A DNA stretch of 64,000 nucleotides from Octopus sinensis (Eukaryota): contig NC_042997.1 in NCBI RefSeq assembly GCF_006345805.1, forward strand, positions 2,232,001-2,296,000, in the 5' to 3' direction. Under the pieces are notes generated by a model. It was given only the letters and a program-made list of their open reading frames with translations. It was not told the origin of the DNA and made no database searches. The first letter of the stretch is position 1. Every line of letters begins with the position of its first letter. The position numbers and the translations under genes are program-made. Positions 20,090 through 55,092 of this stretch are shown here, piece by piece.

Positions 20090-21270
20090 TTGATTTATAA
20101 TCTAATAGAATTCTCATATTATAGGGCTATTCGAAAATTTTCCGTGAAGATTTCAAAAATTTTTCGAGAAAATTTTCTGTGAAAATTTTACAAAAATTTT
20201 TGGGTAAAATTTTCGTAAAATTTTCACCGAAAATTTTCTCGAAAAGTTTATCGATAATTTTCACGGAAAATTTTCGAATAGCCCTATAATATGAGAATTG
20301 TATTAGATTATAAATCAAATTTTTGGAAAATTTTCACCGAAACTTTTCTCGAAAAATTTTTCGATAATTTTCACGGAAAATTTTCCCCGAAAATTTTTGC
20401 CATACTTTGTGATTTTGGCACCGCTGGTTTTCCATACTTTATGATTTTGGCACAGCTGGCCTTCCATACTTTGTGATTTTGGCACCGCTGGCCTTCCATA
20501 CTTTGTGATTTTGGCACCGCTGGTTTTCCATACTTTGTGATTTTGGCACAGCTGGCCTTCCATACTTTGTGATGTTGGCACCGCTGGCCTTCCATACTTT
20601 TTCCAAAATTTTCACCGAAAATTTTACTCAAAAATTTTTACAAAATTTTCCCCAAAAATTTTTCGAAAATTTTCGCCGAAAACTTTCCCCAAAAATTTGT
20701 GATTTTTCGAAAATTTTTGCCATACTTTGTGATTTTGGCACCGGTGGCTTTCCATACTTTGTGATTTTGGCACCGCTGGCTTTCCATACTTTGTGATTTT
20801 TGCACCGTTGGCCTTGCATACTTTGTGATTTTGGCACAGTTGGCCTTCCATACTTTGTGATTTTGGCACCGCTGGCCTTCCATACTTTATGATTTTGGCA
20901 CCGCTGGCCTTCCATACTTTTTCCAAAATTTTCACCGAAAATTTTACCCAAATATTTTTCTCGAAAAATTTTTCGATAAGTTTTACGGAAAATTTTCGAA
21001 AAATTTTTGGGGATAATTTTACCCAAAAATTTTTGTAAAATTTTCACCAAAACTTTTCTCGAAAAATTTTACGATAATTTACACGGAAAATTTTCCCCAA
21101 AAATTTTTCCAAAATTTTCACCGAAAATTTTCCACGAAAATATTTTGAAAATCTCCACCGAAAATCTTCCCCCAAAATTTTTGGAAAATTTTCACCGAAA
21201 ATTTTCCCCCAAAATTTTTTGGAAATATCCAACGAAAATTTTCCCCAAAAATTTTTGGAAAATTTTCAAA
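20090..21270. repeat. Composite satellite: inverted repeat + GAAAATTTTC-rich DNA + two 32-bp tandem arrays
   Basis: Inverted repeat 20090-20150 / 20260-20320. The unit ccatactttgtgattttggcaccgctggcctt occurs ~6 times at 20400-20600 and ~6 times at 20720-20920. Confidence 0.9.
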
Positions 21271-43631: not shown

Positions 43632-43995
43632 TATCAATACAAACAGATCACAACGTGTCTCTAAAAGAAATGGAGAAACTTTCAAAATAGAAAGACCTGG
43701 AAATAGAGGTAACTCGAATGTGGAATCTAAAAACTGAAACAATCCCTATCTAATAGTAGGCGCATTAGGTATGATTAAAAAAATATTCAGACAAATACAT
43801 AACAAAAATACCAGGGCTTACAAACACATATAACATACAGAAAATTGCACTACTGGGCATGCACACATCCTAGGCAAAACACTTTCAATACAGTTACCAT
43901 CAGAGCACCACAACAAATCAGAACACATACCCAAGGCACACAGATCCGCGCTCGGTAGTGAAGTGAAAGCACGCTATAAAAATAAATTTAATGAA

Positions 43996-43997
<2 letters not shown>
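43628..43997 (+). mobile_element. 3' end fragment of the third Dong-like subfamily, directly upstream of the long copy
   Basis: Similar to 5860-6198 (KDLEIEVTRMWNLKTETIP, IQKIALLG, UTR gtagtgaagtgaaagcacg). (AAT)n on both sides. Confidence 0.87.
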
Positions 43998-44046
<49 letters not shown>

Positions 44047-44047
<1 letters not shown>

Positions 44048-46419
44048 TAAATGCAGACTGGATTATACAAACTGAAGGATCCTACCAAAATTTACAACAA
44101 CAAGCATGGGAAGACATCACAATAGCAGACCTAAGAAAGGCACTCACGAAGGCCCATAATTGGAAATCCCCCGGTAAAGATAGGGTGCCGAATTTCTGGC
44201 TCGCATCGCTCCCGTGCGCACACGGTAAGCTAGTTCAGCTGCTCAATGGAATTTTGAGAGACCCAAAGAAAACACCTGAATGGTTAGCAAGTGGCATTAC
44301 TTACCTACTCCCAAAGAATAACGAAACCAACCTTCCAAAAAACTATCGGCCTATAACCTGTCTATCCAGCACGTATAAAATCCTAACATTTATCCTGGCG
44401 GAGAAAACATATGCATTCATGGAGAAGAACGATATTTTCCCCATTGAACAAAAAGGGTGCCGCCGAGGCTCTTACGGATGCAAAGATCAACTGCTAATCA
44501 ATCGTATGATCCTTGAGAACTGTCACAACAAGCGCAGAAATCTCAGCACCACATGGATTGACTATAAAAAGGCCTTCGACAGTATACCGCATCCATGGAT
44601 CTTGAGATCGCTGGACATCTTTAAAATTTCCCCTGTGATTTCAAACTTCCTGAAGCACAATATGTCGTTGTGGAATACGAATCTCCAATTATACCACTCT
44701 AATGGAGTACTTGCCTCAGAAAATATAAACATCAACTGTGGAATTTTTCAAGGTGACTCACTTTCACCTTTAATATTCTGCATAGCCCTAATACCCCTTA
44801 CAAGTGAATTAAACAGAACAGGGTATGGGTATAAAATTGCCAATAAAAAAATAAGCCATCTATTTTATATGGATGACTTAAAACTTTATGGTAAAGACAA
44901 TAATGAACTTGAAGCCCTATTGCGCACCGTGAAAGCATTCAGCGATGACATCGGGATGGAGTTTGGACTTGAGAAGTGTGCCAAGGCCACTTTCCAGAAA
45001 GGGAAAGTGAAGACCACAAATTCAGTCGTGTTAGATGCTGACACAGTCATAAGAGAGCTTGAGCAAGAACAGACATACAAATATTTAGGGATAAATGAAG
45101 GCTCTGGTATTCAGCATGCAAGCATGAAAGAGAAAATCAGGAAGGAATGTTATAGGAGAGTTCGTGCAGTCCTGAAATCTGAACTAAATGCACGTAACAA
45201 GGTGTTAGCTATAAATTGCTTAGCAGTTCCAGTTGTTACTTATAGCTACAATGTGTTGAACTGGAATATGAGTGAAGTAAAGAATATAGATAGAAAAATA
45301 CGCAAGCTGCTGAGTTGTAATAGGATGCACCGCCCAAAGGCAGACGTAGATCGCCTTTACTTTCCCAGAGCCCAAGGAGGTCGAGGCCTGATCCAATTTG
45401 AACTAGCTTACAAAACAACCACAATTGGACTGGCCAATTATCTCGAAATATCGAATGACTGGATGCTAAAGCTCGTGGAAAATCACGAGAGACGAAAGAA
45501 GCTTCCTTCTATCATCAAGGAAAGCAAAAAATTTACTATTGATCTCGTGCAGGATACCCAAACTGAACAACCCGAGGGAAGTACGGCAACTATTGTTGCA
45601 AAGAAGGTGAAAATGATGGCAATGAAAAAAGCGCACGAGCAATTGGCTGATAGGTGGGAGGAGAAACCTCTGCACGGCAAATATGTGACCCGCAGCAAAC
45701 AAGCTGATGTTGACCAGAAGCAAACCCATCAGTGGCTGTGGAGCTCAGGGCTAAAAGCAGAGAGCGAAGGTTTCATCCTGGCTGCTCAAGACCAAAGCCT
45801 ATTAACCCGGAACTACCAGGCCAATGTGATGAAAAATGGAGCAGACCCAAAATGCCGATTCTGCAACGACATGATTGAAACAGTGGACCACCTAATCTCT
45901 GGATGTAAAGTCTTAGCACCAGTGGAGTATAAATTAAGACATGACAGAGTTGGCCAATATCTCCACTGGCTAATAAGTCGGCATTACAATATCAAAACTA
46001 CCGACAAGTGGTATAATCACCACCCTGAGGCTGTAACTGAAGGAGAAAATGTAACCATTCTGTGGGACTTTCCAGTACATACAGACCGAACCATCAATGC
46101 CAATAAACCAGATATTGTTGTGAAAGACCAAAACAATAAAGTTTGCTTATTGATCGACATGAGCATCCCCTGTGATCATAATATCTCAGCGAAAGAGTTT
46201 GACAAGCTCAGAAAATATAAAGACCTACTCATTGAAATTGAGAAAATATGGCATCTCAAGGCGGTTACAATACCAGTGATCGTAGGAGCACTATGAATGA
46301 TCAAGAAGGGAACCGAAAATTATATGAGAATGATCCCTGGCTTACCATCCCTGCAAGAAGTGCAAAAGATTGTCTTAACTGGTACATCACACGTATTGAG
46401 GAGAGCATTGTCGATGTGA
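44047..46419 (+). CDS. RT-RLE polyprotein (partial; one premature TGA at 46294-46296, probable natural stop 46417-46419)
   Basis: ORF-track frame 43963..46296. Its first ~28 aa come from the upstream element's UTR and the AAT tract. The frame stays open after the TGA (MIKKGTENY...RRALSM*), and the sister copy at 2397-2696 has GGA (GALGMIKKG) at that codon. Confidence 0.88.
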
Positions 46420-51212: not shown

Positions 51213-51654
51213 CATTCATATAGATGCACATACATGCACGCATACATACATATATACATACTATTAAGTAATAAAATGGAGAGTTTAAATGCATATGAAC
51301 TAATTTATTAACATTTTGCTTATTAAGCCAACAATTGTTTAAGTTTACACTCAATAAATATTAGAAACCTATAGAATAACTTAGCATTTTGCAGATTTAG
51401 ACCAAAATTGTAGAGTATAGTTTATTGTAAAATTTTATCTATGACTAACAATAGTGTAAATAAATTAATTTATATCCATTTAAACTCTCCACATACTTAA
51501 TAATCTTCGATATTTATAATGTCCCTGTTTATACTGAAGAGACATTTCTAAAGGATATAAAATATTAAATCAGTGTGAATTGGATTAAATCATCCCTTTA
51601 AGAGGTTAATACATCCTCGTAGTGATTGAACATATATATATATATCAATGATTA

Positions 51655-52701
51655 TCAATGATTAAGGGTAACATCTATTAATTATTAATTAATTTCGCCA
51701 AGTAGTGTTCAGTATGTAAAAGGACCATTCAAGGCGTATTCAATATATTACGTTACATAATTAGGGCTCAGTAAAATAATTTACTTTGCAACATACTGAA
51801 ATTTTTAGAAATAGCAGCCAAAAATTTTTTTTAGTCATTTCCACTACTTTAAGAAGAGTCTCCCGGATAGTGTTTACTCAAAAATAATTCACGTAGATAT
51901 GGAGGGAAAATACAAAATATCACATGTACAAAGATTATTTGAGAATGCTCACGTTACTAGATTAGTCGAATTAAACTCGACATTTCTTTCGTCAGCTAAA
52001 CATTTCTTAATTTGGATTTGAAAGCACTAAAAAACTGAACATACCCATCCGACATTAATCATCTCAGACAAACATCTCCAAGCTGCCAGTGCCAGCAAAT
52101 TCAAACAGTACGAGTGAAGATTTATGTTCTTCCCGCTTCCATTCACGTGAGTTATATAGTAAACAGCTTATAACGGTGAGAACCGCAGTAAAAGAACAGG
52201 GAGAAAGGAATTGTATTATCAATGATTAAAGGTAAAATCAATTAATTATTAATTAATGTTCAGTATGTAAAAGGACCATTCAAGGCGTAATCAATATATT
52301 ACGTTATATAATTAGTGCTCAGTAAAATAATTTACTTTGCCACATACTGAAAGTTTTAGAAATAGCAGCTAAACAGTTTTTTTAGCCATGTCCACTACTT
52401 TAAGAAGTGTCTCCCGGATAGTGTTTACTCAAAAATAATTCACGTAGAGATGGAGGGAAAATAAAAAATATCACATGTACAAAGTTTATTTGAGAACGCT
52501 CACGTTTCTAGATTAGTCGAATTAAACTCGACATTTCTTTCGTCAGCTCCATATCTACGTGAATTATTTTTGAGTAAACACTATCCGCGAGACTCTTCTT
52601 AAAGTAGTGGAAATGGCTAAAAAAACATTTTGGCTGCTATTTATTAAAATTTCAGTATGTGGCAAAGTAAATTATTTTACTGAGCCCTAATTATATAACG
52701 A
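51655..52701 (-). mobile_element. PLE-like unit: two direct ~335-bp repeats plus a terminal inverted partial copy
   Basis: Direct repeats at 51655-51997 and 52219-52548. Segment 52549-52701 is the reverse complement of ~51750-51903. Hammerhead-like motif on the minus strand at 52490-52548. Short (TA)n at both ends. Confidence 0.75.
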
Positions 52702-52742
52702 TATATATATATATAAAAAGGAGATGTGGAACACGAGTTGTG

Positions 52743-53049
52743 ATATATAAAAAAGGAAATGAAGAAAATGCTGACAAAATAATTTAAGTAATTTAAGTAA
52801 TCTAATTAGTGAAAGTTCTTTTTAACGGTTGCGCATTTGTTATGCTTATCAAAAGATAATTTGTTTAAGAGAGATAGAGTTCTTTTTTGATAGATTTTTA
52901 GGAAAAAAATCTATCAGAAAAGAACTCTATCTCTCTTTAAAAAATTATCTTTTGATAAGCATAACAAATGCGCAACCGGTAAAAAGAACTTTCACCTAAT
53001 TAGATTACTTAAATTACTTAAATTATTTTGTCAGCATTTTCTTCATTTC

Positions 53050-53060
<11 letters not shown>
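52743..53060. repeat. Near-perfect ~155-bp-arm fold-back
   Basis: Arms 52743-52899 and 52904-53060 with a loop of only a few nt. Contains a degenerate hammerhead-like motif at 52949-52986 and ends in (TA)n. Confidence 0.9.
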
Positions 53061-53127
<67 letters not shown>

Positions 53128-53391
53128 GATATATATATATAATATATATATATATATATTATATATATATATATATAAGAGAGACAGAGACATGCAGAAA
53201 CAAGGTAAATGCTACTTGTATTCGAACACTATACGTATATTCTTTTTAACAAAAACTTTAAAATTTTGCTAAATTTAATTGTTTTCCATACATAAATTTG
53301 AAAAATTCTCAACGAGTGAAGCCAGTAATGAAATTTCATTTTAATAAAATTGTTTTAACATTTCTATCTCGACTTTTCCTAATATATATAC

Positions 53392-53447
<56 letters not shown>

Positions 53448-54787: not shown

Positions 54788-55092
54788 AAAATATTAGGGA
54801 ATAAATCCAAACTTACAGGGAAAAATCAGATTTAGGATTGAATCCAATATTATAGTAAAATATATTATATTAAATTAGAAATAAAATCATACAATGAAAA
54901 ACTTAAGCCAATACATATGATTAATTAATTTATATTATTTAAATATATATCAAAATTATTAACAGAGTTAATTAATTATCTTTTTAAATAATTTTGATAT
55001 ATATTTAAATAATATAAATTAATTAATCATATGTATTGGCTTAAGTCTTTCATTGTATGATTTGACTAATAGTGGTTTTATCTCTAATTAAT
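54785..55092. repeat. Fold-back repeat family copy 2, in (TA)n
   Basis: Same leader (aataaaatattagggaataaatccaaacttacagggaaaaatcagatttaggattgaatccaat) and arms as 40505-40868, with a different loop region. Confidence 0.88.

Follow-up and report, generated by a model that had tools for sequence, protein, structure and literature searches.

What kind of element lies behind a short array of direct and inverted repeats with a hammerhead motif in the genome of Octopus sinensis, which enzyme would move it, and does its ribozyme cut? The array lies in a stretch of 64,000 nt (GCF_006345805.1, NC_042997.1, 2,232,001-2,296,000, forward strand), hereafter the window, from whose first letter positions are counted. 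We consider it probable that the locus is a decayed copy of a high-copy, non-coding repeat of ~560 nt, which bears a type I hammerhead motif and likely borrows the RT and GIY-YIG endonuclease of a PLE.

Architecture of the locus

The element adjoins a (TA)n target on its left (51632..51645), with 10 nt at 51644-51653 reiterating the element terminus (51654-51663). Its main arm (51651..52548), of which the RNA sense is the minus strand, comprises 1.6 monomers arranged head-to-tail and extends from a "long" 3′ end at ~51651-51653 to a 5′ truncation at 52548. Within this arm, direct copy A (51651-51997, 347 bp) and direct copy B (52215-52548, 334 bp) share 315 of 334 aligned bases, with B lacking 13 bp, and are separated by a "spacer" of 217 bp (51998-52214, minus strand). 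An inverted, 5′-truncated arm on the plus strand (52547..52708, 162 bp) is identical to copy A at 152 and to copy B at 149 of its 162 positions, meets the main arm head-to-head with an overlap of 2-3 nt and ends at a "short" 3′ end; a further (TA)n (52701..52714) lies between this retrozyme and a second fold-back. The original prediction of two direct repeats around a spacer, followed by an inverted partial copy, is thereby borne out.

Between the two fixed 3′ ends lies a PLE-type "tail" of ~90 nt (51651..51742, minus strand; the concept is that of PMC11167929 and 10.1101/2021.04.23.441226), which is missing from the inverted arm. With its long end at 51651 and its short end at 52708 the locus fits the PLE end pattern exactly. 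The proposed period of ~565 bp holds for the left ends of the repeats (564 bp), but not for the distance between the predicted cut sites 52495/52494 and 51944/51943, which is 551 nt because copy B lacks 13 bp. The resulting non-coding monomer (51944..52494, minus strand) is strongly self-paired, with a z of -5.2 compared with -3.4 for the opposite strand.

The repeat family in the genome

The genome searched amounts to 2.72 Gb and is rich in microsatellites. Genome-wide, 3,513 candidates were obtained for this stretch, and the family has at least 7,312 units, the number of times that a 26-mer from the main subfamily is matched exactly (reversed control, 0). A pattern for the 3′ half of the hammerhead has 2,962 exact matches, against 0 in the reversed control, and thus the motif is not there by chance. 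Copies are dispersed over all large contigs and form at least three subfamilies that diverge by up to 31%. The window's own subfamily is small (121 matches to its 23-mer), and the closest sampled relative of the window copy differs from it by 6.4%. The third subfamily (L259, L286-L315) is young, with 97-98% identity among the top copies and 1,845 candidates, and its hammerhead is the most canonical, the triplet being GUA and the base of helix II closed by an A-U pair.

The spacer accompanies the repeat at 30 of 30 retrieved loci. It is therefore part of a repeated monomer rather than a body flanked by LTRs, and the locus consists of 1.6 monomers and an inverted arm; nor is it a unique local sequence, being the least conserved part of the monomer throughout the family. 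By eye, it offers possible look-alikes of Pol III boxes when held against what we take to be their consensus, for which no claim is made. Monomers range from 540 to 568 nt, and the longer tandem arrays that were to be sought genome-wide do exist, reaching ~4.2 units (L007/L009). No ORF was found in 48 monomers, where the longest stop-free frames are 54-141 aa, and tblastn of PLE proteins against monomers and window gave neither a hit nor an RT + GIY-YIG ORF, so that the spacer is non-coding, as had been proposed, and not a piece of a PLE ORF.

Contigs from six runs, which are not on record as RNA and whose type is only guessed to be such, contain family-like pieces over the element in 8 of 8 comparisons, although contigs of this sort reveal neither ends nor strand nor circles. 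The literature searches turned up no paper about this family, and supplementary tables or repeat libraries may list it under another name; in an octopus repeat paper (PMC13282606) the words "ribozyme" and "retrozyme" are absent from the main text.

The hammerhead and the predicted RNA fold

Both direct copies carry a type I hammerhead on the minus strand, at 51939..52000 in copy A (predicted cut 51944/51943) and at 52490..52549 in copy B (predicted cut 52495/52494). The assignment is made by motif and pairing analysis, since Rfam scores none: there are 0 hits at the gathering threshold in the window, and among the 37 matches of a relaxed search (E<=10) there is no hammerhead family. The minus-strand hammerhead quoted in the original prediction is present in the sequence, with C3 at 52546, as is GTAAC in place of GAAAC in the other direct copy, which is copy A. 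Here the core is broken (GUAA for GAAA), helix III has a mismatch and the triplet is AUU. Copy B has an intact core and a GUU triplet, with an A-A mismatch at the base of helix II, and the 5′ strand of its helix I is shortened to 3 bp by the inversion junction. Since A is missing one core A and one pair of helix III, and B most of helix I, the locus would be inert or nearly so as a ribozyme. The two or more consecutive complete hammerheads that Li et al. (10.64898/2026.07.22.740005) take as the mark of an "active" locus are thus absent here, with the core of A broken and helix I of B truncated, and are present at other loci (e.g. L205/L251). The locus probably derives from a read-through template, has since decayed and releases no monomer now; the proposed release of a ~565-nt monomer is not supported for this copy, the unit being 551 nt and both ribozymes damaged.

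Across the family, each unit has one type I hammerhead whose helices pair, and of 156 copies 119 retain an intact core, the conservation of which had been anticipated. A palindromic helix III occurs in 90/156, the triplet is GUU in 137/156 and GUA in 12/156, and position 10.1-11.1 is UU in 76 and AA in 66 of the 156 copies, being paired in only 14. When 18 diverse copies were aligned, 88.9% of the hammerhead pairing cells were paired compared with 30-43% in slid controls, with the 10.1-11.1 pair unpaired in 15/18; covariation within the hammerhead alone is weak in these copies (3 two-sided pairs vs 2.7 in shuffles). Conservation of the core reaches 97%, as opposed to 85% overall, across subfamilies diverged by up to 31%. 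The weak, palindromic helix III together with the mismatched base of helix II points to a putative cleavage as dimers, as described for such hammerheads (PMC4209133) and for those of axolotl (PMC7229834).

The monomer as a whole has a stronger signal. The circular consensus fold of 16 monomers scores -168, compared with -80 to -93 in six column shuffles, and contains 23 compensatory pairs where shuffles have 4-13. Long helices link the 5′ part to the spacer, while helix I closes both ends. Individual monomers have circular-fold z values of -4.4 to -5.8 (15 shuffles each). The domain that holds both start sites is the most conserved, at 93% vs 79-86% elsewhere.

The insertion signature

Arms were sampled with short queries from the 3′ part, which leaves arm length unselected. 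The sample of the window subfamily (loci L081-L110 and L131-L200) yielded 123 arms, of which 112 were counted, and that of the main subfamily (47 loci in the first 21.5 Mb of C1) yielded 83, of which 76 were counted; counted arms lie above the identity floor, are clear of the locus edge and of N runs, and end in either 3′ cluster. The 3′ ends fall into two fixed clusters, ~196-201 and 291 nt past the cut site, and a long and a short end are paired in 59 of 60 fold-backs (30/30 in the window and 29/30 in the main subfamily). The arms stand head-to-head, both starting from the same 3′ domain, and have variable 5′ ends. TA repeats follow 183 of 188 arms (107/112 and 76/76, respectively). The sampled arms lack poly(A) and a common LINE tail, and none is continued by shared non-monomer sequence. 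From the polarity of the ends it follows that the hammerhead strand is the template strand.

The family thus shows the insertion signature of PLEs, consisting of two fixed 3′ ends, an inverted 5′-truncated copy and TA targets. Frangieh et al. (PMC11167929) showed that in AT-rich DNA the two strands are nicked by a PLE enzyme, which starts from two sites within the RNA and so generates the "tail" that this source calls unique to PLEs, and Craig et al. (10.1101/2021.04.23.441226) report partial tandems, inverted 5′-truncated copies, a tail and microsatellite targeting for PLEs. The initial description as a non-autonomous PLE- or retrozyme-like element fits these arrays, given the missing ORF, the conserved core and the signature of tail, inversion and TA target. 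That the repeats are instead a minisatellite amplified at the DNA level, or a SINE-like LINE passenger inserted by twin priming, is scarcely credible: tandem arrays do exist, and so do LINEs, such as the one with an RVT_1 + zf-RVT ORF at 43834-46296, but the copies are scattered, their 3′ ends fall at two fixed places and their 5′ ends vary, both head-to-head arms begin in one and the same 3′ domain, poly(A) and a shared LINE tail are missing and the targets are strictly TA. This explanation is largely refuted by the fixed pairing of long and short ends.

The mean difference between units of the same locus is 1.7%, compared with 3.6% to the nearest other locus, and units are closer within their own locus than to other loci in 26 of 33 cases. 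Such similarity would fit a circle, or a homogeneous uncut multimer, as template. There are exceptions, namely two arrays with units differing by 3-7% (L266, L282) and one long+long fold-back that departs from the pairing rule (L206), which suggest a mixed template or two insertions.

Neighbouring insertions and other features of the window

The original prediction correctly placed a second fold-back next to the element, but this belongs to a different family and is a separate insertion, of a Neptune-type PLE. Its arms (52715-52899 and 52905-53062, together 52715-53062) are head-to-head and identical at 152 of 157 positions, with a ~25-nt tail on the left arm and no hammerhead in the arm. The family has 1,197 candidates and TA targets. 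The sequence is 92-96% identical to the inverted pLTRs of another locus (L285). There it makes up the tip of an inverted pLTR of ~650 bp, and the ORF between these pLTRs is of Neptune type, contains GIY-YIG and has 64% identity to a complete RT+GIY-YIG protein; by this sequence match, the second fold-back is assigned to the 3′ tip of a Neptune-type PLE's pLTR. Rfam matches to miRNA families at this fold-back were set aside, as they are far below the gathering score and reflect any long hairpin.

Further (TA)n (53054..53177) leads to a third insertion on the plus strand (53177..53393), a diverged 3′ fragment of pLTR from a further family of Neptune-type PLEs, which is 74-75% identical to the pLTR of L201 and ends in (TA)n. 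The cluster reflects repeated insertion into TA runs. Elsewhere in the window there are a near-perfect 90-bp fold-back between TA/CA runs (54884-55063), part of which matches sequence of L064, and nested minisatellites of 13, 24, 32 and 37 bp (20130-21270).

The search for an autonomous partner

Intact RT+GIY-YIG PLE ORFs with a Cys-rich linker, a mark of Neptune/Nematis according to Craig et al. (10.1101/2021.04.23.441226), are present in the genome. The autonomous PLE partner that was expected to share the repeat was not found among the best 30 GIY-YIG loci and 20 stretches of 5,029 candidates, nor in L201, L284 and L285. A profile of 48 monomers likewise detected no pLTR homology in the examined GIY-YIG loci, and there is no PLE ORF near 30 loci of the third subfamily. 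Candidates for a parent or partner were rejected as follows. The PLE ORF between two arrays in L201 comes with a pLTR of its own, the arrays having been inserted into TA separately; the monomers beside a PLE ORF in L070 are separate TA insertions too; and the 820-aa stop-free frame of the window (43834-46296, plus strand) carries RVT_1 + zf-RVT and is a fairly intact piece of an unrelated LINE ORF.

It is improbable that the repeats are truncated pLTR pieces of an autonomous PLE that escaped the search, as the neighbouring fold-back is of an ORF-bearing one. That fold-back does have the same signature of tail, inversion and TA target, and in the minimal hammerheads of PLEs, too, helix I is short and helix II long (PMC4209133). 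However, the arms here pass seamlessly through as many as ~4 monomers, in which there is no ORF, no sampled arm runs into shared non-monomer sequence, and the monomer in its entirety forms a single covarying fold.

Loci L061-L065 (C6, C3, C1, C19) contain a young PLE of Neptune type, whose RT+GIY-YIG ORFs of 781 aa are intact and nearly identical; upstream there is an ORF reaching 479 aa, and the pLTR carries a minimal hammerhead (at 84 and 6019 in L064). Judged from its sequence, this PLE is a candidate for an active enzyme. Other hammerhead-bearing repeat families are present as well (L061 5537-6760, L062, L068 7021-8170, L077, L080, L285 6372/8693), some as inverted pairs and one with an A-A mismatch at the base of helix II.

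5′ ends and hammerhead cutting

If the hammerhead cut its template, 5′ ends should gather just past the predicted site. Ends at 1-15 nt after it occur at 19 of 126 loci where ~4.8 are expected, although this interval was chosen with the offsets already in view, and BLAST places ends only to within a few bases. Counted by locus, the main subfamily has 7/45 such ends (1.4 expected, p 5e-4) and the window subfamily 12/81 (3.4 expected, p 1e-4); by arm, the counts are 10/74 (2.4 expected) and 12/102 (4.1 expected), respectively. During the first pass of the site 23 events fall in 1,451 nt (with 13 rather than 12 events of the window subfamily, owing to a slightly wider 3′-end filter), and during later passes 0 in 420 nt, a contrast that is weakened by the lower background stop rate of long arms. 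This excess hints at cutting in vivo. Against this reading, the ends are spread over 3-15 and not placed at 1, and a second hot spot of 11 events occurs at 91-105. In the third subfamily, despite its more canonical hammerhead, only one arm ends at 1-15 (30 loci, selected for length), and a test of partner arms for a shared cut template was not significant (0/15 vs 10/48, p 0.10). In L070 (5946-6407) the 5′ end of a main-subfamily arm coincides precisely with the predicted cut and is followed by short repeats of the arm's first 9 nt.

The same data bear on an alternative in which a PLE mobilizes the element with the hammerhead as a passenger: uncut multimeric transcripts would be the templates, tandem arms would copy tandem sources or arise by template jumps, and the 5′ pile-up would be a pause of the enzyme at helix I. 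This is unlikely, yet it deserves serious weight. The hammerheads are attenuated, with GUU so frequent and the 10.1-11.1 position mismatched (UU/AA) in 142/156, and most arms read through the site (45/55 and 38/52 in two subfamily samples). For Anolis Poseidon, PMC11167929 describes unprocessed RNA as the main substrate, with hammerhead cleavage dispensable in vitro and no reads ending at the cut site, and 8 of 9 Xenopus retrozyme dimers gave no cleavage in vitro (10.64898/2026.07.22.740005). By contrast, a pause should recur at each pass, whereas later passes lack such events and the third subfamily adds one, and a passenger would hardly keep its core at 97% across subfamilies so far diverged.

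A proposed life cycle

In the preferred reading, of a non-coding repeat borrowing a PLE enzyme, tandem loci would be transcribed, and their hammerheads, weakened by the palindromic helix III, the GUU triplet and the mismatched helix II base, would cut mainly as dimers into unit-length RNA, part of which may be ligated into circles. The PLE enzyme would then bind the most conserved domain (monomer ~150-300) and nick both strands in (TA)n. Reverse transcription would start internally at two sites ~90 nt apart, one for each DNA end, giving two head-to-head arms of which one carries the tail. With a cut linear RNA as template an arm would stop at the cut site, while a circle or an uncut multimer would allow read-through into near-identical tandem units.

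A bolder version is offered tentatively, as possible rather than probable: the insertion ends could be a fossil record of the retrozyme life cycle, in which the hammerhead cuts in the germ line, the PLE enzyme copies both the cut linear monomer and the ligated circle from the two start sites ~90 nt apart, and no parent PLE sharing sequence survives. If true, this would be evidence at the genome level that PLE-type transposition involves hammerhead function and rolling-circle templating, beyond the only in vitro PLE system, which showed neither. Taken alone, the locus is an unremarkable dead copy of an element type already known, but the family is useful, with thousands of young copies, fixed 3′ ends and countable 5′ ends. 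It bears on whether PLE enzymes mobilize animal retrozymes, as proposed in PMC7229834 and supported by phylogeny alone in 10.64898/2026.07.22.740005. It also bears on whether their hammerheads cut in vivo, which 10.1101/2021.04.23.441226 calls "still unclear" and for which cleavage was dispensable in vitro (PMC11167929).

Comparison with known systems

The kind of element is already known in animals, as non-LTR retrozyme or non-autonomous PLE. By its sequence features the family files as an animal non-LTR retrozyme that would work like a PLE passenger, with self-cutting predicted only. Like metazoan non-LTR retrozymes as described in PMC7229834 and 10.64898/2026.07.22.740005, it is built of tandem monomers that are GC-poor and non-coding and each bear a single type I hammerhead, has a strongly self-paired predicted circle and shares its genome with PLEs. 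The weak helix III and the mismatch at the base of helix II resemble axolotl HHR_Amex2. At 540-568 nt the octopus monomer is longer than the retrozymes of coral, mussel and axolotl (220-390 nt), but inside the range of 51-972 bp given by Li et al. (10.64898/2026.07.22.740005). Unlike metazoan retrozymes, so far as the sections available of these papers describe them, the octopus insertions are mostly short fold-backs of two arms that lie in (TA)n and carry a tail of ~90 nt.

With EN+ PLEs the octopus family shares partial tandems, an inverted 5′-truncated copy, an optional tail from two internal start sites and microsatellite targeting (PMC4209133, PMC11167929, 10.1101/2021.04.23.441226, PMC3846280), and the pLTR hammerheads of EN+ PLEs similarly have a short helix I (4-6 bp), a long helix II and a palindromic helix III. 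In contrast to EN+ PLEs, the octopus family has no RT or GIY-YIG ORF, its tail measures ~90-95 nt compared with the 30-40 bp reported for PLEs (10.1101/2021.04.23.441226), and its hammerhead does not form the G10.1-C11.1 pair. Non-autonomous Chlamys PLEs such as MRC1 generally have 3′ ends in common with autonomous families (10.1101/2021.04.23.441226) and most Chlamys PLEs are without a hammerhead, whereas the octopus family has a hammerhead and, in the examined loci, no partner with a shared 3′ end.
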